IMG/VR virus record: IMGVR_UViG_3300037010_002844
Location: 64,001 to 128,000 of that record
Direction: 5' to 3' (one strand)
DNA length: 64,000 bases
From: a virus
The position numbers and the translations under genes were made by a program. The first letter of the stretch is position 1, and the number at the start of each line of letters is the position of its first letter. Below are positions 2,554 through 56,458 of this stretch, one piece after another. Under the pieces are notes generated by a model. It saw nothing but the letters and a program-made list of their open reading frames with translations. It had not been told where the DNA came from and did not search any database.

Positions 2554-3891
2554 TCACAGCAGGTCCATGCGCTTCATCGCCATCGGCGTCGTGGCCTCGT
2601 ACGAACATCGAGCTCGGACGACCGTCCGCAGACGATCGAGCCAGTCCTTCATGTACGCAGGTCGTTCCTTGATGTTATGAATCAAAGCTGAAGCAATGTG
2701 ATGCAGATCCTTGAAGTCCGGCGACGCCAAGAAGGGCCACTTACTGGCCTCCTGAGCGATGCTCGAATATTCGAAGTTATCGATCCACAGAGGCATACAC
2801 CCGAGCTCAATGCATTCTCGAGCGGCGGTGCCCCCATAGGTGTCCTGATCATAGAGGCTGACAGCGATGTCAGCCTGACGACAGATGACCTTGAACTCGT
2901 CGCGGTTAAAGGCATCCGGGACCAATGAAACGTAGCCATTAGGCCCGCACTCCTTCTCGAGCTCGTGGTTGAAGAACTTCTGGCTGGGGTTGCCCGCTAG
3001 CACAACGAAGTCCTGGCGCAGTTCACGGAGTTTCGGCAAGATGTCAAACATGAACTTGCCACAGTTGGTGTAGTCCGACGAACGACCGCGCCCGCCGACA
3101 CGGTTCGGGACGAAGAGGATGACCTTGCCTTCGGCGTGCCAGCGATTCAACAGGTCGGGATCAAACCTGACGTTGCTCATGTCGGGCTTAGAGTTGATCT
3201 CCTCGGCTGAGTAACCATCGTCCCAGGGATCCGACTTCATCAAGATGTCATTGACAATGTCCCGCTTCAGGACATTGTCAGCCTCGCGCTCGAACTCCTT
3301 CAAGGCCGAGGGACACTGCCAGAAGTTCCAGTCAGCCTTTATGGCTGCCTCAAGCTGGCCGAACCAGAGCGAGGCCTCTTCCGGAAACTTGGGACAAGAA
3401 GGTACGTCGACGAAGTGACTGTGCACGTAAAACCTGGGCCTATAACCACCAGTCACGTGGAACAACGCCTTGAAGTTGCGAAGGTGCATTGGGTCGTTGA
3501 TGTAGACCGCGTCCCACTTGGGCTTTTTGCCGATCTTCTGCATTCCGAGATCAAGGGCACTGGCGAGTGCCGACCAGTTGAAGTCGTACCGTGTCACCAA
3601 CGCGTTGGCGATGATCTCGTGCTCGATGAAATTCAGACGGCGCTCGCCATCCTCACCGTACTTGGCCCACAGGTCAGCATTGACATCCCGGGGATCTGTG
3701 ATAACCTGACGACCAGCGGGATCACCCGTCTTGGGGCACATCACGTCAATGTGAAGGTCAGGATTGAGCTTCAGCATTTCACGGACGCGGCCCATCACCA
3801 TCTGCCATCCTGAGTCACATTCGAGCAGAAACTTACCGTAGGTATTGTAATTGCTCAACTGTGTCTCGATCAAGAGCCTCTTGTGTTCCAT
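2554..3891 (-). CDS. GT-B fold glycosyltransferase (GT1/GT4-like); candidate DNA or sugar glycosyltransferase.
   Basis: 445 aa. The C-terminal half reads VILFVPNRVGGRGRS...VVLAGNPSQKF...YGGTAARECIELGCMPLW, which resembles the nucleotide-sugar binding E-x7-E region of GT-B enzymes. Confidence 0.6.
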   Translation of the reverse strand: MEHKRLLIETQLSNYNTYGKFLLECDSGWQMVMGRVREMLKLNPDLHIDVMCPKTGDPAGRQVITDPRDVNADLWAKYGEDGERRLNFIEHEIIANALVTRYDFNWSALASALDLGMQKIGKKPKWDAVYINDPMHLRNFKALFHVTGGYRPRFYVHSHFVDVPSCPKFPEEASLWFGQLEAAIKADWNFWQCPSALKEFEREADNVLKRDIVNDILMKSDPWDDGYSAEEINSKPDMSNVRFDPDLLNRWHAEGKVILFVPNRVGGRGRSSDYTNCGKFMFDILPKLRELRQDFVVLAGNPSQKFFNHELEKECGPNGYVSLVPDAFNRDEFKVICRQADIAVSLYDQDTYGGTAARECIELGCMPLWIDNFEYSSIAQEASKWPFLASPDFKDLHHIASALIHNIKERPAYMKDWLDRLRTVVRARCSYEATTPMAMKRMDLL

Positions 3892-4044
3892 GAAGCAGTA
3901 TCTACTACTTGTTTATCAAGTTGTATTGGGTTGAAGGAAAAGGCAAGCGATCAGGCCAAGCGACAAACGTCGATCAATCGCTATGGCGTCAAATGCTATG
4001 CAAGCACCTGAAGCTCTAGAAAAAAGACATGTCTCGAACACAGA

Positions 4045-4170
4045 CTATAGGCAACACATTGGGTGCAATAATCTTGCCTCCACACTTTTTGCTTCCATGA
4101 GAAGACACTCCATACCATAGTGGTTCTTGTAGTCAGAAGTGTCTTTCCCATAGTAGCAACAGGGGTGCAT
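4045..4170 (-). CDS. 41-aa Cys-rich micro-ORF (MHPCCYYGKDTSDYKNHYGMECLLMEAKSVEARLLHPMCCL).
   Basis: ATG 4170-4168 shares one base with the methyltransferase TGA (TGATG). HPCC and HPMCC motifs sit at the two ends. No homolog recognised. Confidence 0.25.
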   Translation of the reverse strand: MHPCCYYGKDTSDYKNHYGMECLLMEAKSVEARLLHPMCCL

Positions 4171-4853
4171 CAGGTCGCCTTCTTGTAGACACGAGTGTTC
4201 TTGCGGTAGAAGCTCGCAAAGGCACACTTCAGGCGATTGCCCTTACCTGGCACCTTGAGGTTGGCAAATGCAGCTGACAACGCGGGATCGACCACGTACC
4301 CGCGGGTCGCCATCTTCTTGATGACCTCGTCGACCGGTTGGCAGTTGACATGGTGACGCCCCCACTGTGGGTGCCAATCTGGCCCTCCCGGCAGGCGCTC
4401 GCCCAACCGATTGACCTTCAACGTCAAGTTGGCATCATAGGTACCCCAGCCCGAGGCCACGCCGAAGACTACGAGCCTCGGATCCGGCGACAACAGGCAG
4501 TCCAAAAAGTTCGACTCTTTGTCATGAGTCACGTGTTCCATCGCCTCGAGCGACATGCAGACATCGCGTGAGCCCACCGTCAGGTTCTGAGGCGACACAG
4601 TCCCAATGTCGATCTTTTGGAAGTTCTTGACATCGATCCTCAGCTGATTGACGTCAGCGAAGCCATCGCAGCCCCAGACCGGGATGCTGCCCTCGAGCGG
4701 CTCCAACCAATCACCTTGACCGCAGCCGAAGTCGGCAATCGACTCAGCCTTCAGAACATTCAAAACGAAATCCTTCCACGCCGGTAGCCCGTGAGCGAAA
4801 TACTGCCGACCATCGTCAAAGAAGCCACTGTCGTAATTGATGGGTTTTGCCAT
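4170..4853 (-). CDS. Class I SAM-dependent methyltransferase.
   Basis: Motif I is IADFGCGQGDW, post-I is WGCDG, motif II is DVCMSLEAMEHV. I place the start at ATG 4853-4851 (MAKPINYD), 1 nt after the upstream TGA, rather than at the ORF-track start 4916. Confidence 0.7.
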   Translation of the reverse strand: MAKPINYDSGFFDDGRQYFAHGLPAWKDFVLNVLKAESIADFGCGQGDWLEPLEGSIPVWGCDGFADVNQLRIDVKNFQKIDIGTVSPQNLTVGSRDVCMSLEAMEHVTHDKESNFLDCLLSPDPRLVVFGVASGWGTYDANLTLKVNRLGERLPGGPDWHPQWGRHHVNCQPVDEVIKKMATRGYVVDPALSAAFANLKVPGKGNRLKCAFASFYRKNTRVYKKAT

Positions 4854-4854
4854 G

Positions 4855-5394
4855 TCAGTCCTTGTTAAGGAAGTCGATGATTTCCTCGGTCTCGCGGGCG
4901 AGGTTCTCGTCGTCAACGTTCAACCTCAAGATCCTGCACTTCGACCAACTTGCAAATTCCTCATAGGCGCTGTGAAGGCTGGTCAGCAGCTCTTCTCCAA
5001 TGCTAGGGTCGAGGTCGTCCTTGATACCCGCGTAATTGGAGCGTTGCGCAAAGATCACGCGAGCGCCCAATGATGCCCATGCCTCGTCCATGTGTCGCAG
5101 CATCATCAAGTCGGTCTCACGGCCAAATACCTTTGCATATGCATACTCACACGGAAAGCCTCGGTCGAAGATGACACTGTAGCCCGTTTGCTTCAACAGG
5201 TCATATACACGGGGATCTGCGAAACGCAGTTGATTCAAGAATTTGTCGTTCTTGGTGACCCGCGAGCTTAGAAATGAGGTGTATTCTGAGGTCGCCTTGA
5301 AATACGGAATGCCAGTTACCCGCGAAAGCTCGCGGGCCATCTCGGTCTTACCACAACGATCTGGTCCGACAAAAAACGTTAGTGATTGTTTCAT
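4855..5394 (-). CDS. P-loop nucleoside/nucleotide kinase (Tmk/dNMP-kinase-like).
   Basis: Walker A is FFVGPDRCGKTEMA. A Tmk-like DRGFPCEYAYAKVFG segment is present. 179 aa. Confidence 0.6.
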   Translation of the reverse strand: MKQSLTFFVGPDRCGKTEMARELSRVTGIPYFKATSEYTSFLSSRVTKNDKFLNQLRFADPRVYDLLKQTGYSVIFDRGFPCEYAYAKVFGRETDLMMLRHMDEAWASLGARVIFAQRSNYAGIKDDLDPSIGEELLTSLHSAYEEFASWSKCRILRLNVDDENLARETEEIIDFLNKD

Positions 5395-14414: not shown

Positions 14415-14772
14415 GCGTCGTCTCCTTCTTTTCTAGCAACTGTAGGTCATATCCACTGACAAGTGCACACTTGAGCGTCGGATGCAACGTTACGAATGCG
14501 TCAAACTTCTCCCTAGCATCATCACGCCACCAGCCCTTGACTTCCACGTACACCCGCTTAAAGAGCTCCAACGTCGGTCATTGACGATGGAAGATCATGT
14601 ACGCCTCTCTTGTGAGCTGGATCCTGATCTCCTCCTCGCTGAAGCCCTCGTCCATGCAATGACGCCAGTTGTCATACAGGTCGACGACGCCATTCTTTCC
14701 GTTCCCGTTGCCCGCTGAGTGCAGAAAGTACAAAGGGGCGCTACGATGAGCGGAGCGCGTCCGTACAATCAC
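14383..14772 (-). pseudogene. T7 endonuclease I-like homing endonuclease remnant with an in-frame TGA (intein-5 gap).
   Basis: ORFs 14578..14772 and 14383..14571 are in the same frame and are separated only by TGA 14578-14580. VYVEVKGWWRDDAREKFDAFVTLHPTL resembles T7 endonuclease I FVETKGLWESDDRKKHLLIREQHPEL as I recall it. The upstream PD motif is not preserved. Confidence 0.55.
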
Positions 14773-14856
14773 ATGTTGCGGAGTCGTGGGCCTGTTGCGT
14801 CTCTGTAAGGCGACATGGCCACGGTCGCGGCGAAACCTGCGACCAAAACGCCCGCC

Positions 14857-15333
14857 TCACGTCAATCCACGAGCTTCGTAACCACTGCTAGACCCAATCA
14901 ACTCGTCGTCTTCGGTTAGGTGCTGTGCCTCAACCCACCCGCGATTCTTCGTCAAGATGGGATGATCAGCGGTGCAGACAAGCTTCTTGCCGTCGTCGAA
15001 CACGAGCTCGATGCACTCCTTGGGTCCTTGGTCGTAAACGACGTCGACGACTGATGTGGTGAACTGCTGCTTGACTTCATCGAAGACCGTCACCTCGTCA
15101 CCGACATGGACGTCCTTGATCAACTTGTACGAGTCATCGCCCATCAGCACTGCCGTGTCCTGGTCGACGCACTGGAAGATGCCTGCCCACTTGCCTTTCT
15201 CGTAGACCTCGTAAGGTTTGGGATCGGTGAAATCAATGACGGCCGGGTGCATGTGCTGCTCGAACCAGGTCTTGATGTCATTGAATGATACCGCATTTGT
15301 ATGTGCGTCAACGTTAGCAACGACTTTTGCCAT
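14857..15333 (-). CDS. dnaE: DnaE fragment 5: degenerate C-intein stub, extein, N-intein 5.
   Basis: MAKVVANVDAHTN is a decayed block-G-like stub. The extein at 15172-15294 is AVSF...DPKPYEVYEKGKWAGIFQ. N-intein 5 at 14860-15171 is CVDQDTAVLMGDD...CTADHPILTKNRGWVEAQHLTEDDEL. Confidence 0.8.
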   Translation of the reverse strand: MAKVVANVDAHTNAVSFNDIKTWFEQHMHPAVIDFTDPKPYEVYEKGKWAGIFQCVDQDTAVLMGDDSYKLIKDVHVGDEVTVFDEVKQQFTTSVVDVVYDQGPKECIELVFDDGKKLVCTADHPILTKNRGWVEAQHLTEDDELIGSSSGYEARGLT

Positions 15334-15351
15334 GTCTTTGTAAAGGTACTT

Positions 15352-17151
15352 TCACAGGTCCATAACGTACACCGCGTTGGAGCAACCAAAGATCTTAAAA
15401 AGCCTGTGTTCCATCGCCATCTCTTCTTGTGATGCGATCCCCGGAATCGCCCTGACAGCAAATCTATCGATACGATTTTGTCCGTCCGTCCACCAAAACC
15501 TAGGCTGCGTCATGTGATCAAATCTAAAACCAGATAGTTCATACGCCCGGCCAGTGCCACCCAACCTCATGTCACGGTATGTGATCATTTTTTGGTAACC
15601 ATGCTCACGTGACCAATCCCTGGCAGCGTTGATCAACCGCGACATGCCTCCAACGACGATGGTATCGCGGGCCGTTGAAACCCGCGCCAATTCAATTGTC
15701 TTAGATCCCCACTTAGTCTGCTGGTGCGGTTTTCGCAATGTCAATGCACAAATAATGTTTCCAGCAATGTCCTCTAGCCAGAACGAATGCGACGAAGGAG
15801 TGTTTCCATCGAGGTGATTGTTCGCCATGAACTGAGCGGTGATGGCTGGACGACCGCTGCGAAGATGTAGCTTTCGTGCCATCACGCGAGTAGCAAGACC
15901 AAGCTTTACCCTGATCATGCTTTTGATGATGTTTTTCTTTACATCATGGTGCCATTCATCGTCGAAGATATGTAGCAACGACACACCACGCTCAAGAGCG
16001 CGAGTCGACTTGTCTTGGTGATACGATGGTGGAGTACCGGTCGCCTCACTGTGCCAATAGACACCGTTGCACTCGATGGCAATCCTTCCGTTACCTGACA
16101 CGATGTCCAGCTCATAAGGCGCGATTGACTGTCTGTCGTTGGCGATGGCGTTCGAATCGAGCTTGACGAAGAAATCGAACACCTCACGATGCCAGCGAGA
16201 GAAATTAGCCGGGTAGCACGTTGAACACACCTTTCCCTTGTAAAGGACGTTAAAGGGAACAATATCAGGTACGTTACAACTGACGCATGTCACATGCACC
16301 GGTGTTGAGTATCCAGCAAACTCAAATTTTTCGATGTTCCACCTCGACCGCAGTGCATCAACTCGCCGTTCGACCTCTTCGAGAGACAACCGAAAAGGAG
16401 AGTTAGTGCCGTTCTCGATAAGGCGTTTTCTAGTCTCGATGATCGAACGTTTGATATCTTCAGAATTAGCGTTCCGAGACCAATGATTCAAGCGAACGCC
16501 TTCGCCGATCCGTTCTGATCGCCGTTTGATCCTATCGTCAGTTTCTGACGTCTGACCGTGCTGCGTCCAGTGTTTTTCTACTTGCCATTTTTCAGTCAAT
16601 GCTCGAGAGATGTTATGCGCAGCTCTTGTGATAGATTCATTATTTTCTTTAGTTTGTCCTGTTCTCCAGTGCCCGTGTTTTTTGATGAAATCACGACAAC
16701 CTTGTGCGGCCCTTCGAACCGATTCAGACGTTGTTTCTGACAGCCCCTTGTTCCATGCAGGCAATGATTTTGATTTCCGGCTAAGCGCACCTCTTACTTG
16801 AGAGTTCTTCTTGCTACAAACTCCACAGAGACGTTCATATCCCGTTTGAAAGGTCATGAACTTGACCGGCCCTGAACACTGAACGCACGGTCCAGGGTGC
16901 TCTCGAAAAAGAAGGTACGCAGCCTCCGCATTGAGCCCGTGCTTTTTAAGGAGATGTGCGCGGAGCGAATTTAGGCTAGCTTTTCGCAATGGATCATTGC
17001 ACTGTGGGCACCTCGAAGGACACGATGTCATCGCCGGGCCCGAGCTCCCTCGCAAGGATGGTGCCCCTGTTGCTGGTGACGATTCGTTGGTCGCCGTAGA
17101 CGCCTCGTGTCGTTCCATCGTCGAGTTGGATCTCAAACCACCCTCTTTCAT
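15352..17151 (-). mobile_element. Free-standing homing-endonuclease gene (zinc finger, NUMOD3-like repeats, Vsr-like nuclease, conserved C-terminal domain) at junction 4.
   Basis: Contains CPQCNDPL...HLLKKH, WNKGLSETTSESV and TGQTKENNESI repeats, and YELDIVSGNGRIAIECNGVYWHSE. The C-terminus is YRDMRLGGTGRAYELSGFRF...FWWTD...IFGCSNAVYVMDL. It is a paralog of 17837..19570. The true start is probably an internal Met (17118 or 17031), because the track start overlaps fragment 4. Confidence 0.75.
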
Positions 17152-17851
17152 GTCGTTCCTTTTTGATGATGAGCTCGATGGCGCGCTCGATGAGCCGCAT
17201 CGTTTCTAGACCTAGGAGGTCGTACTTGATGAACTCTCCGATCTTCTCAAGGTGTTTATAATTTACGCCCTCGACCCAAGGTGACTGTGGCTCGCGGACG
17301 CCGGCCTTGCCTTTGGACGTCACCAAAGGCATCTTGTTGGGCAAATCGTCTGCAATCAGCACACCACCCGCGTGACGACCGAGACTACGATTCTGCTTGA
17401 AGAGGATCTTGATCGACTCGGCGACGACCGGGTACTTCTCAATGAAGCCGCGAAACGACGGGCTGACCGGCTGCTTACACTCTGGGCTACAGCCCTGGCA
17501 GATGGACTTCGACTCCGGGCCCTTAGGAGCCCTGCAGTGGAAGGCCATGGCCTCATCGTAGGTCAAGACGAACAGATTCTTGTCGTCGCCTTCCTTCATC
17601 GTCGCCTTACGGACCTCGTCCTCGACGGTCCGCGTGGCAGCGTTGGTCTCCTCGAATGGGATGCCGTAGAACTTGCCGATATCCTTTACAAGCGTTTTTA
17701 GTTTGAAACAGTTATAATTGCTGATGGGAACGACGTTTTCCCACCCAAAAAAGTTTCGAAGTTCATCAAGAACCTCATCTCGCCTGGCAAGATCGGTGTT
17801 GTGAACAACGACGCTCTTGTTGGACGCCAAAAATGAATGAACGACCATCAC
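16994..17851 (-). CDS. dnaE: DnaE fragment 4: very short C-intein 3, palm/fingers extein, degenerate N-intein remnant.
   Basis: Starts MVVHSFLASNKSVVVHN (17798-17848, ATG at 17848). The extein is TDLARRDEVLDELRNFFGWENVV...SLGRHAGGVLI...IKYDLLGLETMRLIERA. The tail at 16997-17140 is WFEIQLDDGTTRGVYGDQRIVTSNRGTILARELGPGDDIVSFEVPTVQ. Confidence 0.85.
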   Translation of the reverse strand: MMVVHSFLASNKSVVVHNTDLARRDEVLDELRNFFGWENVVPISNYNCFKLKTLVKDIGKFYGIPFEETNAATRTVEDEVRKATMKEGDDKNLFVLTYDEAMAFHCRAPKGPESKSICQGCSPECKQPVSPSFRGFIEKYPVVAESIKILFKQNRSLGRHAGGVLIADDLPNKMPLVTSKGKAGVREPQSPWVEGVNYKHLEKIGEFIKYDLLGLETMRLIERAIELIIKKERHERGWFEIQLDDGTTRGVYGDQRIVTSNRGTILARELGPGDDIVSFEVPTVQ

Positions 17852-19570
17852 ATGAATCCTAACTCAACTACAGTTGAATTTACATGCGCTCGTTGTGGTC
17901 GAAACCACGAAACGCTACGAGCATTGAAGATCCACGAGGCACGACACAGGCGAGAAGACGCCAGGCCTCCCAAACAGGTGTCAACTTACGCGTGTCCGTG
18001 GTGTGAGGCGTCATATGACAGCGGGCGTAAGTTGACATTGCACTGCACAAAAACGCACCAAAAATCACCCGTCGTTGTGTATGAAACAAGGTACCCAGGG
18101 TGCAGGAAGACGTGCATCGATTGTTGCGACTGGGTCAGGTTCATCGATCAAGAAAAAGGATACCCCGAACGGTGTCCACGTTGTAGCCGAAAACACGCAT
18201 ACGCGTCCAAGGGCACCTCGTCATGGAACAAAGGCCTGACGAAAGACAATGACGAACGCATGTCAGCCAGTGCTGCAAACATGCGAGCTCACTACAAGGA
18301 ACACGGTCACCACAACTCCGACAAGACAAAGGAAAACAACGAAAGCCTTAAACAAAAGGCGGCAAAAATCAGCGACAGCCTGCGGAGGTATTATGCAACG
18401 CACAGCGGCTGGTCACTTGGCCTGACAAAGGATACGTCTAGCATCATTGAATCTCGCAGTAAGAAGATCAGCGCTTCGTTGAAAGGACGATTCTTTAGCG
18501 ACGTAACGCTTGAAAAAATGCGCAAGGCAAAGTTGCTGACGCACGACGAGGTACAAAAACGCCTCAAAGAAAAGCAGCTTAAACTCATTGACGAATATGT
18601 CGATACTGTCACCAAAGCGCGCATCGAATGCACGATATGTTCAACAATATTTGAGCGTTGCGTTGGCGCAGTGTTCAACAACGAGGCCAAGTGTCCCACC
18701 TGCTTTCCGCCTTGGTCAGACAAAACGAGCAGGTGGCAACAGGACGTCTACGCATTTATCCAGACGCTGGCACCTGACGCAGTCCTTAGCGATCGTAAGA
18801 CGCTCGGCGGAATGGAGCTCGACATACTCATTCCATCGCGCATGTTTGCCATCGAGTGCAATGGCCTATACTGGCACAGCGAGGCCGCCAATAGATTTGA
18901 GCACGATCACGCGGAAAAGAAGAGATTGCTGTCCCTCAAAGCCGGCGTATCGCTTTTCACGTTATTTGAGGATGAGTGGCGCGACAAACGACCGATAATC
19001 GAAAGCATGTTGCGCCATCGCCTTGGGTTTTCTACCAAAGTCGATGCGCGTAAGTTGAAAGCAGAACGCTGCGAGCCCGAAGAAGTTCGAGAATTCATCA
19101 ATCAGTGCCACCTCGACGGTCACGTGAGGGCCCAATTTGCCGTGCGATTGGTAACCTCATCGGGCGAAATCGTAGGCGCCTGCAGCCTTAGGTGGGCACG
19201 AAATGGGGCAGACAGAACGACGATTGAGATCGCTCGCCTGTGCTTCAAGCTTGGCACACATGTACGAGGCGGGGTGTCAAAATTGCTATCAAAGGCAAAA
19301 GCTATAGCAAGAGAAAACAATGCAGCGAGGTTGATGTCTTACTCAGACAATCGCTTGGGAGGAAACGGTTATGCCACCTCAGGCATGAAGTTCAACGGTA
19401 CCACAGTCGCTCGCTTCTGGTGGACTGACTTCATGCATCGTTACGACAGGTTCAAGTACCGAGCCAACAAGAAGCAAGGTCTAACAGAAAAACAGGTAGC
19501 GGAGGCTGCCGGCGTTTATCGCATCTATGGCTGTAGCAACTCTCGCTACGTCTTAGACGTCACAGCGTGA
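17837..19570 (+). mobile_element. Homing-endonuclease gene on the opposite strand inside the intein-3 gap (C2H2-like finger, NUMOD3-like repeats, Vsr-like nuclease, conserved C-terminal domain).
   Basis: Contains CARCGRNHETLRALKIHEARH, then WNKGLTKDNDERM and SDKTKENNESL and GLTKDTSSIIESRSKKIS, then MELDILIPSRMFAIECNGLYWHSE. The C-terminus is YSDNRLGGNGYATSGMKF...FWWTD...IYGCSNSRYVLDV. Its ATG at 17837 overlaps, head to head, the ATG at 17848 of fragment 4. Confidence 0.8.
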
Positions 19571-44404: not shown

Positions 44405-47400
44405 TCACCCGCATTTGCTGTTTCCGCAGTTCATGCAAGTAACGCATCCCTGCTGATAGGCGAGCGACGTCGAGGCACAGATCGGGCAACACTTTTCCTG
44501 CGTTGCCTTGGTCCCATCCACGATGTAGTGCTTGCTCAACGTTCGCGCGATAACCGTCGAGAACGAGAACAGATCGCTGTGCTTGTCCTTGCGGAGCTGC
44601 TCGACGACAAGGTGAACTGGTACTCCATGTCGAAGTGTCATCGACAAGGTTCGAGTGTGCGCTCCGTACAACGGATTGTCGAAGAGGTTGACAATGTCCT
44701 TATAGAGAAGGAAATTGTCGTCCAGGTCGACGCGGAGGTTGTACGTGGACACCCCGTCAGCGTTCTTGCCGTTCTTGATGAGGACGCCCTTCTTGGCCTT
44801 CCTCGGGACTTCAACCTGTTCTGACAGTCCGGCGAACAGCTCGTAAGGCTTGCCGTTCATGAGGCCCACGAAGACCAGGTACTTCTCACCCTTGATCGAA
44901 ACGTGGTGAATGTCACACTCCAGCTCCTTCGGACGCTTCAGAGAGTGAGACTCGGCGATATTCTTGGGTTGGTCCGCCGCTGTCTTCTTCTCGTCCTTGA
45001 TGAGGACGCCATCACGAGAACCATCTCGATAGATGGTGACGCCCTTGCAACCAGTCTCCCAACCGCGCATGTAGATCTGCTTCACCACATCGACCGGCGT
45101 GTCACTCGGAATGTTGGTGGTGTTCGAGATGGAGTGACAGACCCACTTCTGAGCTGCGGCCTGGACGTCGATCTTCTTGACCCAGTCGATGTCATTCGAC
45201 GTGGCACCGAAGTAAGGCGACTTTTCCACGTCGGTCTCACCAGTGACGTCCATCCACTTCTTGAATCCGTGGTGATAGACCGTGTACTCCTGCCACTTGT
45301 CGCCCATGGCGTCAACGAAGTCGACACGAGCATCCAAGTCATTCGGATTGATCTTCTTCCTTCGCTTGTAGCTCAGGAGGAAGGCGGGCTCGCAGCCAGA
45401 TGTAGTCTGGGTCAAGATGGAGACAGAGCCAGCTGGCGCTGTCGTCGTCAAGGCGATGTTGCGACGTCCATAGAGACGATACTGATCACGGAGCTCATGA
45501 TCAGCGTCCATCACTTGTTCAATGAAAGGATGTCCCTCTTCCACCTTGTGGGAAAAAATCGGGAAGGGACCACGATCACGTGCCATCTCAACAGTCGAGC
45601 GGTAGGCACCCAACGCGAGGCCCTTATAGATCTGCTCAGTGACGTTGATAGACTCGTCCGAACCGTACTTGATGTTGAGGTAGGCCAAGGCATCGCCCAA
45701 GGCAGTGATGCCCAAGCCGGTGCGACGACCATTGATTGCAGTGTTGCGGATCTTGGTCCATAGCTCGATTTCGGGCCGCTTCACGTCAGCGGGCTCAGGG
45801 TCATTCTCGATCTTCTGCATGATTCGATCAATGGCCTCGAGCTCCAGGTCGACGAGATCGTCCATCAACTTCTGCGCCTTCTTAACAACATCGTTGAAGC
45901 GCACGAAGTCAAAACTGGCGTGAGGAGTAAATGGATCTCTGACGAAGCGAGCGAGGTTGACGAGAAGCAAACGACATGAATCGTAAGGCGACAGCGTAAT
46001 CTCACCGCATTGTTCGCTAGCGATTATTACGTTTGCTTGATTTTGGAACTGTACAAGCTTTTCGTCACCAACATACATGCACAGTGTGTGCTCTCCGTCG
46101 ACAGTGCCGTTGTACACGTCTTCGACACCCGCGGGTTCAACGCTGATCACGCGGTGATTGTGCAATGCCGCGGCCTCTTTCAGGGCAGACCAGGACGCAA
46201 AACCGTTTTTGGTACCGATTCGTGCCGGCACATCCAAGCGTCGACATTCGGCAACCCACTCTCTTCCCAAGGGCTCTCTACCCAACGTAAACCTAAGTGA
46301 GGTAAAGGCGTCAAGTTGCTGTTTTCGCGTTACTTCTGCACGATCAGCGTGAAGCTTCTTCAGGTTCTCTGCCCGTGCAACGTTCTTATTGGCCTTCCTG
46401 TTTGCGTAGAGGTTGGAACACGAATGTGAGCAGAATGCCTGTTCACGTCGGCAGTACGGCAGCGCGAACATTTCGTTGCACCACTCACACGTCCGGTTGA
46501 CGTACAGCTCACCGTCGATCACATCGACATCATAACCTTCTTCAAGGGCCTGAACGTACGTACGTTGAATCCTCGTGTCGAGTTCTGGTGTTGAGATGTC
46601 GACCTCTCGAGCCGCCCAGCACGACAGGTCGTAGAAGCTTCCCAGCTCGCTGCGACGCCAGGCCGAAAACGACATCGGCAGCGACCGTTGTTTAGCGTAA
46701 GCGTACCACTCGTTCAGTGAAACGCGGCGGCCGAGCGACCGGGTCAACCCCAGCACGTGTTGGCGGATGTCATCATTGGTGACGTTGTCATAGGCACGCG
46801 GATTGTTGGCCCCACCGACGCTCTCGCTCATCTTCGCCGAATATTCAGCAAACTTGCCAGCGACTTTATGAGCAACCCAAAGTTGATCGCCATTCAACAG
46901 CTCGTCGACTCGCTTCCGGGATCCGTCACGCATGATCATCGTGTGGTTTCCGGTGGCCTTAAAAGTGTGACCTCCCTCAATGGTCACCTTGAACACAGGA
47001 ACTCCCTTACCGGTAAGCCTAGGATTCCTCATCAGGCGGATGCCAATTTTTCCTGTGGCCTCCTGGTAACAATAGACCGGCAAGTCCTTGCCTTCGTCAG
47101 CTAGCTGCTTGATGGGCACGTAACCCCTTCCGTCAGCGACGGCGATAAGAGTTTCTCCCGTAATGCACGGGTTGGTGCTCGTCGAGCCGTAACCAAACGC
47201 AGCGTAGGCATCTGCTGGCCCGCGGCGCAGGACAGTGTCCCAGAACAGCAAACCGGGTTCAGCAGATTCCCATGCTGCCTGGATGATCTCATGCCACAGT
47301 TGGCGAGCGTCTACCTGTTCCTCGACGATGTGAGGAACGTCTTTGTCAACTGGAAACCGCAGTTGAACCTGCGTACCCGCCTTAACGGCGTTCATGAACT

Positions 47401-48046
47401 CGTCTGTCAAACGAATCGATATGTTGGCGCCCGTGACCTTCTTCTTGTTCTTCTTGATGTTGATGAAGGTGCGAATCTCCGGGTGGTGCACCGACACTGT
47501 CAACATCAGCGCGCCTCGGCGGCCGCCTTGGGCCACCTCGCGACAGGTATTACTGTAGCGCTCCATGAAGATGCCCAGGCCATCGGTGGTGCGGGCAGCG
47601 TTGGCAGTCTCGATACCCTTCGGGCGAATCGTCGAGATGTCAAAACCCACGCCGCCGCGACGCTTCATGATCTGCGCCTGTTCCTGGTCAGTCTTTAGGA
47701 TGCCGCCATAGGAATCATAAGGGCTCTCGATAACGAAGCAGTTGCTCAACGACTGAAACTGGTACGGATTGCCAACTGCCGACATGGGTGATCCCTGTGG
47801 GACCACGTCCCATGAAGAGAAGAGCTCATAGATCTCTTGCTCTGACATGGCGTTCGGATACCGTGTCTCGATGCGAGCAAACTCCCGCGCCTCGCGCCGG
47901 TGCATGTCGTCAGGGGTAGCCTCGTAAATGTTTCCCTTAAGATCCTGCAGCGCATACTTGCCTGCAAAGACCTCACCCGCCAGCTCATCTCCACGAAAAT
48001 ACTCGATCGACGCATCGCGAACGTGCTGATACGTGAAAGTCCTCAT
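44405..48046 (-). CDS. nrdJ: Class II (adenosylcobalamin-dependent) ribonucleotide reductase NrdJ, interrupted by one contiguous intein.
   Basis: N-terminal YFRGDELAGEVFAGKYALQD; GGVGFDISTIRPKG; the active-site TNP[intein]CGEITL; and a C-terminal CCPICAS...CVTCMNCGNSKCG zinc module. Confidence 0.9.
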   Translation of the reverse strand: MRTFTYQHVRDASIEYFRGDELAGEVFAGKYALQDLKGNIYEATPDDMHRREAREFARIETRYPNAMSEQEIYELFSSWDVVPQGSPMSAVGNPYQFQSLSNCFVIESPYDSYGGILKTDQEQAQIMKRRGGVGFDISTIRPKGIETANAARTTDGLGIFMERYSNTCREVAQGGRRGALMLTVSVHHPEIRTFINIKKNKKKVTGANISIRLTDEFMNAVKAGTQVQLRFPVDKDVPHIVEEQVDARQLWHEIIQAAWESAEPGLLFWDTVLRRGPADAYAAFGYGSTSTNPCITGETLIAVADGRGYVPIKQLADEGKDLPVYCYQEATGKIGIRLMRNPRLTGKGVPVFKVTIEGGHTFKATGNHTMIMRDGSRKRVDELLNGDQLWVAHKVAGKFAEYSAKMSESVGGANNPRAYDNVTNDDIRQHVLGLTRSLGRRVSLNEWYAYAKQRSLPMSFSAWRRSELGSFYDLSCWAAREVDISTPELDTRIQRTYVQALEEGYDVDVIDGELYVNRTCEWCNEMFALPYCRREQAFCSHSCSNLYANRKANKNVARAENLKKLHADRAEVTRKQQLDAFTSLRFTLGREPLGREWVAECRRLDVPARIGTKNGFASWSALKEAAALHNHRVISVEPAGVEDVYNGTVDGEHTLCMYVGDEKLVQFQNQANVIIASEQCGEITLSPYDSCRLLLVNLARFVRDPFTPHASFDFVRFNDVVKKAQKLMDDLVDLELEAIDRIMQKIENDPEPADVKRPEIELWTKIRNTAINGRRTGLGITALGDALAYLNIKYGSDESINVTEQIYKGLALGAYRSTVEMARDRGPFPIFSHKVEEGHPFIEQVMDADHELRDQYRLYGRRNIALTTTAPAGSVSILTQTTSGCEPAFLLSYKRRKKINPNDLDARVDFVDAMGDKWQEYTVYHHGFKKWMDVTGETDVEKSPYFGATSNDIDWVKKIDVQAAAQKWVCHSISNTTNIPSDTPVDVVKQIYMRGWETGCKGVTIYRDGSRDGVLIKDEKKTAADQPKNIAESHSLKRPKELECDIHHVSIKGEKYLVFVGLMNGKPYELFAGLSEQVEVPRKAKKGVLIKNGKNADGVSTYNLRVDLDDNFLLYKDIVNLFDNPLYGAHTRTLSMTLRHGVPVHLVVEQLRKDKHSDLFSFSTVIARTLSKHYIVDGTKATQEKCCPICASTSLAYQQGCVTCMNCGNSKCG
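46010..47167 (-). mobile_element. 386-aa intein in the NrdJ TNPCGE active-site motif.
   Basis: Residues 294-679. Starts CITGETLIAVADG, has block B GNHTM, and ends ANVIIASEQ followed by +1 Cys. Internal modules are two homing-endonuclease-associated-repeat-like segments (LGRRVSLNEWYAYAKQRSLPMSFSAWRR; LGREPLGREWVAECRRLDVPARIGTKNGFASWSALKEAA) and one CxxC...FCSxxC zinc module. I saw no LAGLIDADG, HNH or GIY-YIG motif. Confidence 0.8.
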
Positions 48047-55231: not shown

Positions 55232-56458
55232 TCACCGTGTACAAGTAATGAACTCGCACTTCAATGGAAAATAATTGACGTAGCCCGGAACTCGCACCTT
55301 GTCAATTGATTTGACGATGTCAATGCAATCAGGCGCCACATCGAGCAGTAGCGCATCGTGCAGCACAAAGATGGGCCTGACGCCGGGCAATCCCGAGAAC
55401 TGGTTGACGAGCTCTGAAAACCCGAGGAGGCTAACGTCAACACCGGTCGACTGGGCATACGTATTGATGAGGATGTGATCAAGCGGTTCCTCGATCAACA
55501 GCGACCTGCCATAGCGATTGGTGACGTGGCCTGTCTTGATGAACTCGTCCTTGACACGCTTCAACAGTTCCTTGGTACGAAAGAATCGCTTGACCTTGCC
55601 AACGAAGTCGTTGAGTTCCTTGCCTTCGATCCCGAGCACCTCACCCAATGAATGCTTGCCAGATCCGTAGAGCTCAGAGATAACGGCCTGCTTGATGGCG
55701 TTCCGTGAGGCGGTCCCAGCAAACAACTCACGGGAAATGAACGTGTACATGTCAGCGTCTTCGCAACGACCACCGGCCTCGTACAGCAGGACACGGGCCT
55801 CCAATGCCGCGAAGTCAACGTAGGCAATGGCACCACCTTCCTCGACGGGTACTACCATGTCGCGGAACTCTCGCTTCAAGCTAAGGATCGCGGGCCCGCT
55901 TGCGGTCGTCAAGCGCCCAGTGCGTGTTCCGAAGCGATCATAGTCAACGATGGTTGCCATGCCGTCGCTGTCAGGTTGAAAGCTCTCAATCACCTTAGCA
56001 TTGTTTCCCGCGGACGCCCGCAGCTCTAGGTACCGAGCCTTGTCAACACGTGCAGGTTGCAACGACCTGAGGACGGCCGATTGGGGAACCCACGTGTTCA
56101 CGTAATAATCTCGTGATAGGGTGTCCAAGGCAACAGTGGCCTCATTTATGAGGCTTTTTACGAGGCCGCGGTGTTCCCTTTCTGGCATCACCTGTGACCA
56201 CGGCGGCTGCACGTTAGAACCCGACATCAACAGGTTCATTGCATTGATGAATCTCTCGGGTGGTCGAGAGGAAATCTCCTTGCCCGCTAGACGCATCACA
56301 GTGTCCAGGCACCTGTCAGAACGCAGCTTCACCTGGCCCGACAGGTGCCAGACGCCCAAAGGCACATCGTCGACCCAGCGGTAACCCGTGTCGACGTACA
56401 GGTGACGTTCCGTGCCCATCAACCGCGAGTCAATGCAAAAAGGTTCTGTCACGAGCAA
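55232..56458 (-). CDS. Minimal family-A (PolA-like) DNA polymerase domain.
   Basis: Motif A is YVDFAALEARVL, motif B is RNAIKQAVISELYGSG, motif C is IFVLHDALLLDV. Only 408 aa, with no recognisable exonuclease domain. Confidence 0.65.
   Translation of the reverse strand: MLVTEPFCIDSRLMGTERHLYVDTGYRWVDDVPLGVWHLSGQVKLRSDRCLDTVMRLAGKEISSRPPERFINAMNLLMSGSNVQPPWSQVMPEREHRGLVKSLINEATVALDTLSRDYYVNTWVPQSAVLRSLQPARVDKARYLELRASAGNNAKVIESFQPDSDGMATIVDYDRFGTRTGRLTTASGPAILSLKREFRDMVVPVEEGGAIAYVDFAALEARVLLYEAGGRCEDADMYTFISRELFAGTASRNAIKQAVISELYGSGKHSLGEVLGIEGKELNDFVGKVKRFFRTKELLKRVKDEFIKTGHVTNRYGRSLLIEEPLDHILINTYAQSTGVDVSLLGFSELVNQFSGLPGVRPIFVLHDALLLDVAPDCIDIVKSIDKVRVPGYVNYFPLKCEFITCTR

Follow-up and report, generated by a model that had tools for sequence, protein, structure and literature searches.

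A conserved, splicing-dead split-intein derivative as a probable non-covalent staple of a phage DnaE polymerase encoded in pieces

How can a replicative DNA polymerase be put together from separately encoded pieces at a junction that holds no active intein? This question is raised by a 64,000-nucleotide stretch of viral DNA (positions 64,001 to 128,000 of IMG/VR record IMGVR_UViG_3300037010_002844, hereafter the window), in which a DnaE-type α subunit of DNA polymerase III (Pol III alpha) is encoded by eight open reading frames (ORFs) on the minus strand (23762-10068), with endonuclease-like ORFs interspersed. Except for junction 4 and an atypical junction 3, the junctions carry canonical N-/C-intein pairs. 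At junction 4, fragment 4 ends with a short extension (the tail), fragment 5 begins with a still shorter one (the head), and an endonuclease gene lies in the gap. A prediction made earlier from the letters of this stretch (the original prediction) had taken junction 4 for the relic of an intein, and had left two alternatives: either the pieces assemble non-covalently with the relic as a handle, or the gene is defective. The tail and the head were found where this prediction had placed them. The results described below indicate that junction 4 is probably a conserved, catalytically dead split-intein derivative that serves as a non-covalent staple of DnaE.

The tail aligns without gaps with N-intein 1 of the window (14 of 42 residues identical; BLASTP, E 6e-8) and also with N-intein 5 (13/42; E 2e-6), in agreement with the original prediction. 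The stretch covered is smaller than the C-terminal two thirds that had been proposed. When a profile of 96 tails was compared with a profile of 18 N-inteins by hhalign (Prob 97.5%, E 8e-12), tail columns 4-46 fell on N-intein columns 50-91 of 107, that is, on the C-terminal ~45% of the N-intein. A search of all PDB sequences with a profile of tail plus head (hmmsearch) ranked the NrdJ-1 split intein highest (E 1.1e-5, residues 62-115), with an alignment extending to the natural break between N- and C-intein; Npu and other DnaE inteins came next. The tail profile alone matched 1869 proteins at E <= 0.001 out of 1.84 billion representatives, the top ones being multi-intein proteins.

In the AlphaFold2 model of fragment 4 (46 homologues), the tail is the most confident region, with a predicted local distance difference test (pLDDT) score of 89-95. 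It contains five predicted strands (WFEIQ, TRGVY, RIVT, GTIL, and IVSF) in the order expected for a HINT domain. Comparison of this model with the PDB by Foldseek gave Pol III alpha first, and most of the remaining matches were inteins, covering 37-46 columns at 1.3-2.0 Å with individual E-values of only 0.8-4. By the alignment, the tail comprises β3 and β4 together with the globular portion of the second C2 unit, the small lobe that normally bears block B. Profile similarity and fold together place the tail in the HINT superfamily, in the sense of homology and not of function, with about half of the domain present. As far as sequence and predicted fold can tell, the tail is a splicing-dead half-HINT derived from an intein.

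There is a further resemblance, between the second half of the tails (xFGDQRIVTSNRGxIxARxLxxGDDIV) on one side and N-intein block A and the beginning of a Vint/HINT domain (8r2c_A) on the other. This resemblance arises because the HINT fold has an internal two-fold pseudo-symmetry, which can mislead automatic alignments of the tails; MAFFT of the full proteins put the second half of the tails on block A of a downstream N-intein. A block-A-like reading of 'YGDQRIVTSNRG...GDDIV' was rejected, since a far better score is obtained when the tail is matched, over 42 columns that include ELxxDDG, to the second half of N-inteins.

The head corresponds to the β-strand with which a C-intein begins (β6 in the gp41-1 numbering). 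Comparison of 15 heads with 22 C-inteins by hhalign gave one match, to C-intein columns 6-20, which represent this first strand (P 4e-5). When the initiator Met was left off and the profiles were compared by ungapped sliding, the best register (+6.3) again corresponded to the first strand; shuffled profiles scored 0.9 ± 1.5, and 1 in 5000 was as good. The heads were read from the loci, since the spliced fragment 5+6 extein, used as a query for homologues, gave only 15 proteins. Across 20 loci, the consensus of the heads is M-(A/S)-K-(I/V)-x-S-(I/V). Heads in split relatives are MAKITSITKSEI-HF, MSKITSINSVAT-SF, MSKITSIKRVES-TF, MPKIMSITKVEP-TF, and MKIKSISKEKIDSP-AF, and those in the closest relatives of the window are MAKVIGVVDNSSKQPTF, MAKVKSINNTVTQPTF, MVMIRTMEDRSTATPTF, and MVKVLSVVDRSTDSPNF. 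The original prediction had read MAKVVANVDAHTN/A as a degenerate block G in which TN had replaced HN and the +1 residue was Ala. This reading had to be given up: the block-G register scored -9.5 in the sliding comparison, the position of 'HTN/A' in the window is not conserved (SSKQ, VTQP, STAT, and STDS in the closest relatives), and the C-intein first strand fits instead. The 'TN A' residues of the window align with the extein linker (KEG-NPSPT-F) of unsplit relatives.

The residues that carry out splicing are missing on both sides of junction 4. Cys1 and block A are absent: the extein ...KKERHERG continues straight into WFEIQ, and the first residue of the tail is variable across the 96 tails. 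YGDQ stands at the place of TxxH, where the N-inteins have CT.DH, and no tail group has a conserved His. Fragment 5 lacks blocks F and G as well as the terminal Asn and the +1 nucleophile; the arrangement of class 3 inteins (WCT triplet, nucleophilic Cys in block F) does not apply, as there is no block F. When Cys, Ser, Thr, and Asn were checked in the relatives, no conserved nucleophile or Asn was found on either side of the junction. A hidden or alternative-frame block A with Cys1, which the original prediction had named as an outcome that would speak against it, was sought in the minus-strand frames of 17400-14800, and none was found except that of the N-intein of fragment 5 itself at 15171. 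A block A concealed by a sequencing error is rejected as well, because the same architecture is seen in 96 tails. Judged from the residues present, splicing, as had been predicted, and also cleavage by Asn cyclisation are excluded at junction 4. Both the end of the tail and the start of the head coincide with the natural N-/C-intein break, with the endonuclease gene between them.

The search with fragment 4 gave 112 homologues, and two contig scans gave 93 loci. At the junction 4 site, 56 of these loci are continuous and read ...KEGNPSPTFDDIK... with no insertion, 32 are split at the exact site and bear tail and head, and 5 could not be classified. The 96 distinct tails, pooled from proteins and loci, are all intact, with no frameshifts or stops, and none has block A. 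They extend ~44-86 residues beyond the helix that precedes them (mostly 44-60), and fall into three sequence groups with the common pattern hEhEhDDG-xxhxh-xxxxhxT/L-xxG-xhhxxxxL-xxxDDh. The ratio of nonsynonymous to synonymous substitution rates (dN/dS, Nei-Gojobori) is 0.11-0.42 for the tail in 12 pairs with estimable dS, and 0.05-0.12 for the adjacent extein in most pairs. The split is kept in two loci that have no endonuclease in the gap (L002, 332 nucleotides; L054, 434 nucleotides) and in one where the endonuclease is broken into two ORFs (L097, 6956-8511); in L096 (8524-10067), the endonuclease is followed by three extra small genes before fragment 5. Other gap endonucleases at the same split are GIY-YIG-like (by motif; Pfam NUMOD matches only), Vsr, and DUF7487. 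By these measures, purifying selection maintains the junction 4 module across dozens of lineages, with or without an endonuclease, and the module is not decaying; in other words, the term relic does not suit it.

An intact ancestral intein, which the original prediction had expected to be visible in related phages, was not found at this site among about 200 relatives. The sole natural contiguous form is P0073, in which a shortened tail is fused to a head within one DnaE ORF, giving an insertion of ~42 residues (...RRASIQFDTGEWAFPVSDDAIEKLNVGDSYDNKKITFIQHKCTN-VSFEDIK; residues ~262-303). This could be either a re-fusion or the ancestral state.

The module is also found in other proteins. Other hosts were sought among the best 150 of the 1869 tail-profile matches. 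A fragment of the large subunit of a metagenomic ribonucleotide reductase (RNR; P0144, which occupies L098:3437-5105 together with the next gene) ends with ...HN/CEILLPTKPFNSLDDEG-DFEIELDDGTVVKLPGQHKVLLKDGSMKKVRELTEDDDIENLLV and a stop codon, and bears the tail only; the next gene starts 11 nucleotides downstream with MKIVKKTCVRDVPK-IALCTLGSVNWG, and no endonuclease is present in the gap. In a radical-SAM-like protein (L099:5001-7929), the tail is followed by an endonuclease-like ORF and then by the head MIVKKVERHSFY... In a terminase-like protein (L101:1765-4346), which adjoins a T4-type portal, the tail is followed after 27 nucleotides by MAIVSKIKATCD... Heads of the form M-x-(K/I)-(I/V) are paired with tails in the RNR, radical-SAM-like, and terminase-like hosts. 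The RNR of L098 also seems to hold a split intein with a very short N-half (L098:2335-3273 and 3437-4903): the upstream ORF ends with ...SC/CVTPDTWVEILDEEQ and a stop codon, and the next ORF opens with ~130 residues ending in ...MVLTHN/S. An additional contiguous intein lies further on in this RNR.

In the paper on the gp41-1 crystal structure, the HINT fold is described as two C2-related units (10.1101/546465), and an electrostatic 'capture' contact is formed between two antiparallel strands, β3 in the N-intein and β6, with which the C-intein begins (10.1101/546465; see also PMC11766414). Junction 4 has kept the central segment of the fused intein and has lost both catalytic ends. The head (β6) would therefore be expected to dock on the tail (β3), these being the antiparallel strands of the first 'capture' contact of split inteins. 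Because β3 and β6 are antiparallel neighbours, such docking would place the end of the palm extein beside the start of the fingers extein, and the rebuilt DnaE chain would resemble one with a hairpin-shaped surface insertion. We infer both this docking and its sufficiency. The insertion point is the surface linker between the palm and the fingers, where P0073 tolerates a contiguous insertion. The tail/head pair might in this way make the insertion of the endonuclease phenotypically neutral. Tail, endonuclease gene, and head probably move as a single mobile cassette: the closest relatives of the window include both split (P0002, 82%) and unsplit (L001 and L013, 81%) forms, and the tail group correlates with the endonuclease type, both of which fit a cassette moving as a unit. 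In a partial charge check of five pairs, β3 was acidic (-3 to -4) and the heads were neutral to +2; no weight is placed on this result.

Several points weigh against a staple derived from a split intein. Pfam HINT models did not detect the tail in a single-sequence scan of fragment 4 even at E <= 1, which is why profile methods were necessary. The heads are short and less conserved than the tails (8 of 17 residues are the same in the window and in L094). The final ~12 codons of the tail overlap the start of the endonuclease gene, so that part of the constraint on the tail is unrelated to its function. In the AlphaFold2 model of P0073, the insertion has a pLDDT of 44-50, which is of low confidence and uninformative. 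Furthermore, in the NrdA protein of Aeromonas phage Aeh1, the only characterised case, deletion of the tail spared the heterodimer and abolished both the assembly of the dimer of heterodimers and activity; the tails are unnecessary for binding of the fragments and are required for higher-order assembly (PMC3045599). By analogy with Aeh1, the palm-fingers interface of DnaE might suffice for association. If so, tail and head would be intein-derived and selected without tethering fragment 4 to fragment 5; the interface would hold the pieces, and the module would act in active-site positioning, higher-order replisome assembly, binding of another partner, or folding. The confident folding of the tail by AlphaFold2 without the head is in line with such a role. 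However, the elements retained are exactly the capture strands of split inteins, which pair with each other, the head is too short for an independent domain, and the occurrence of the pair at split points of unrelated hosts argues for a joining role that does not depend on the host. A non-tethering role is regarded as rather unlikely.

The module might also be no degraded intein but something older than the split, namely a free-standing half-HINT inserted at the surface of DnaE and divided later by endonucleases, with P0073 as the unsplit ancestor. The lack of a full intein among the relatives and the tail-like and head-like parts of the contiguous insertion in P0073 would agree with this history. 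It is improbable in view of the 56 continuous loci without any insertion and of P0073 being a single and shortened case. In addition, the break falls exactly on the canonical N-/C-intein boundary, where the endonuclease is inserted, the active N-inteins of the same gene are the nearest relatives of the tail in sequence, and the same module stands at split points of unrelated proteins. The second alternative of the original prediction, namely decay at junction 4 with a DnaE that is defective or dispensable, could draw on the loss of every catalytic residue and on another polymerase-like ORF in the window (55232-56458). The intact tails, the dN/dS values well below 1 in tail and exteins alike, the split retained after loss of the endonuclease, and the canonical intein pairs at the remaining junctions, atypical junction 3 excepted, make it very improbable. 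Hardly credible, finally, is non-canonical splicing or self-cleavage, either in a class 2- or class 3-like manner or with the missing blocks supplied in trans. Class 2 and class 3 inteins without Cys1 do exist (PMC11766414), and three-piece split inteins can reportedly work artificially (10.1101/2023.01.30.526203). Junction 4, however, has neither block F, where the Cys of class 3 resides, nor block G, and it lacks both a terminal Asn and a +1 nucleophile; neither side of the junction has a conserved Cys, Ser, Thr, or Asn, and the N-extein is joined directly to β3, so that a block A supplied in trans would be unable to form the (thio)ester. The evidence favours the first alternative of the original prediction, non-covalent assembly through the module, which is the staple proposed here.

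If the staple reading is true, a split intein can lose all of its chemistry and yet persist as a pure heterodimerisation module. The elements kept would be the first contact named by the 'capture and collapse' model, and junction 4 would represent a natural dissection of that model. It would also explain how a replicative polymerase works in pieces at a junction without an active intein. We lean, with some reserve, towards a wider statement: the junction 4 module may belong to a widespread class of mobile cassettes, present in at least four host proteins, in which the central 'capture' part of a split intein now serves, by co-option, as a protein staple free of chemistry. Besides self-splicing introns and inteins, such a class would give homing endonucleases a third way of inserting harmlessly into an essential gene, and would provide direct sequence evidence for a degenerate-intein origin of interaction tails. 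The natural modules of ~48 + 11 residues, which occur in several divergent groups, could serve as compact and possibly orthogonal protein-pairing tags. In annotation, such junctions should not be labelled as pseudogenes or broken inteins.

The coordinates of the features at junction 4 are collected in Table 1. Fragment 4 consists of a short C-intein remnant, the palm, the KYDLLGLE motif, the helix MRLIERAIELIIKKERHERG, and the tail, in this order. Its extein matches Pfam DNA_pol3_alpha (E 7.9e-13), and the best Foldseek matches are E. coli Pol III alpha. Fragment 5 opens with MAKVVANVDAHTNAVSFNDIKTWFEQ... and runs to AGIFQ, after which the N-intein of junction 5 begins at the Cys at 15171. Palm and fingers are contiguous in unsplit relatives (...KEGNPSPTFDDIKAWYE...; alignment to the 56 continuous loci). 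Along the DnaE pieces, Pfam detected PHP, DNA_pol3_alpha, DNA_pol3_finger, and HHH_6, with HINT/intein matches at most fragment ends.

Table 1. Features at junction 4 of the DnaE gene (positions in the window)
Feature	Position	Strand	Description
Fragment 4	17851-16994	minus	ends ...KYDLLGLETMRLIERAIELIIKKERHERG-WFEIQLDDGTTRGVYGDQRIVTSNRGTILARELGPGDDIVSFEVPTVQ, then stop; W238 = codon 17140-17138
Fragment 4 extein	17141..17797	minus	DnaE palm, residues 19-237, to the KYDLLGLE motif helix and ...KKERHERG
Tail	16997..17140	minus	48 aa, WFEIQLDDGTTRGVYGDQRIVTSNRGTILARELGPGDDIVSFEVPTVQ; C-terminal end of fragment 4
Gap endonuclease gene	15352..17031	minus	free-standing, 559 aa
Fragment 5	15333-14857	minus	begins MAKVVANVDAHTNAVSFNDIK; N13 = codon 15297-15295
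Head	15301..15333	minus	~11 aa, MAKVVANVDAH; start of fragment 5
Fragment 5 extein	15172..15300	minus	TNAVSFNDIKTWFEQHMHPAVIDFTDPKPYEVYEKGKWAGIFQ; start of DnaE fingers; weak Pfam DNA_pol3_finger match

The ORF in the gap is a full-length endonuclease gene, as the original prediction stated: it matches the 'homing endonuclease' family phrog_3339 nearly end to end (E 8.4e-60; residues 44-557 on profile positions 71-533 of 536). Its features are zinc fingers, NUMOD-like repeats, a putative PD-(D/E)xK/Vsr-like core, and a C-terminal GNAT/Mom-like region. Pfam gave only a weak match to REase_MTES_1575 for this ORF; for the gap ORF of L059, which has the same EVNG.YWH motif, it gave Vsr with an E-value of 1.7e-5, below the curated cut-off. 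The ATG of the endonuclease gene of the window lies inside the G-D-D codons of the tail in another frame, giving a 38-nucleotide overlap with the end of fragment 4 (17031-16994), and this position of the ATG is kept in L094 and L096. The stop codon lies 18 nucleotides upstream of the ATG of fragment 5 in the same frame (15354-15331). This close packing of fragment 4, endonuclease, and fragment 5 suggests translational coupling or a shared constraint on the 'SFEV' end of the group-1 tails. A scan of 14700-18000 for promoters and terminators gave none above the shuffled expectation.

Junction 3 holds an unusually split intein, between fragment 3 (20610-19873) and the start of fragment 4 (17851-17798). 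Fragment 3 carries Cys1 and blocks A, B, and F (...YVDLTVEDDHRFHVV), followed by ~55 unrelated Cys-rich residues. On the side of fragment 4, only ~17 residues (MMVVHSFLASNKSVVVHN/T) are present, which correspond to the end of block F and block G. The sequences 'HRFHVV' and 'HSFLAS' at the break resemble a short duplication, and the same very short C-intein is found in many relatives (among them P0002, P0070, and P0091). The endonuclease gene of junction 3 (17837-19570) is on the plus strand, opposite to the fragments, and overlaps the start of fragment 4. It is a paralogue of the junction 4 endonuclease (17031-15352, minus strand): both belong to phrog_3339 with ~560-577 residues. Their common features are C2H2-like zinc fingers at the N-terminus, repeats of a WNKGLT (NUMOD-like) motif, a nuclease core with the motif ELDI...ECNG.YWHSE, and a C-terminal region of ~170 residues with weak GNAT and Mom-like matches.

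The replication module in which DnaE lies is that of a large uncultured phage, because a protein identical to fragment 4 (P0001) is present on contigs of up to 309 kb. The neighbours of DnaE in the window are the RNR large subunit, a DnaB-like helicase, and a UvsX-like recombinase. When the region was compared with 50,697 phage records, Megablast gave no match, and tblastn gave distant DnaE only, at 25-31% identity, with nothing close. The RNR large-subunit ORF of the window (44405-48046, minus strand; 1213 residues) matches its PHROG family in two separated stretches, 26-229 and 672-1212, and may have a large insertion, possibly an intein.

The architecture of junction 4 is like that of the fractured genes described by Dassa et al. 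(2009; PMC2677866), in which an N-terminal fragment with one intein half, a free-standing endonuclease gene, and a C-terminal fragment with the other half follow one another. Those genes contain Vsr-like or GIY-YIG endonucleases, and their hosts include a phage-like DnaE; in their split inteins, the six HINT motifs and the five catalytic residues are complete, and trans-splicing is expected (PMC2677866). The other DnaE junctions of the window are of this type. Junction 4, unlike them, retains the central segment only and cannot splice. The tail and the head are like the initial-contact elements of the 'capture and collapse' split inteins (Npu DnaE, gp41-1, and NrdJ-1), namely β3 and β6 with the lobe between. 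In contrast to these inteins, the module lacks the parts onto which the normal collapse takes place, a pre-folded lobe at the N-terminus and catalytic strands at the C-terminus, and it would end up as a complex without ligation of the chains. Engineered splicing-dead split inteins serve as affinity or dimerisation tags, since their halves associate without ligation; these tags are full-length halves with point mutations. The junction 4 module differs from them in being natural and minimised. In a limited full-text search of the literature, no description of a conserved non-splicing split-intein remnant was found.

The closest known system is the NrdA-a/NrdA-b pair of phage Aeh1 (PMC3045599; Friedrich et al. 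2007), in which an essential replication-related gene is likewise split by a free-standing homing endonuclease, and the pieces have terminal extensions that are absent from unsplit homologues, as is the case for DnaE at junction 4. The Aeh1 nrdA gene is split by mobE; Crona et al. (2011, PMC3045599) showed that the tails at the C- and N-termini of the pieces remain unprocessed and that activity requires them. The RNR of L098 (P0144) is broken in the same LPTxP.../IALCTL segment as Aeh1 nrdA. The tail hidden Markov model gave negative bit scores with Aeh1 NrdA-a and with NrdA-b, meaning no match; the authors of the Aeh1 study regarded degenerate split-intein remnants as a speculation only, having found no sequence match (PMC3045599). 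Junction 4 differs from Aeh1 in that its intein origin can be traced by sequence and predicted fold, its host is DnaE, and it belongs to a large family spread over several hosts. It would thus supply the sequence link, hitherto missing, between fractured genes that splice and those that reassemble via tails. Junction 4 is probably a sequence-traceable variation on the interaction-tail solution of Aeh1, and part of a broader family of mobile cassettes.

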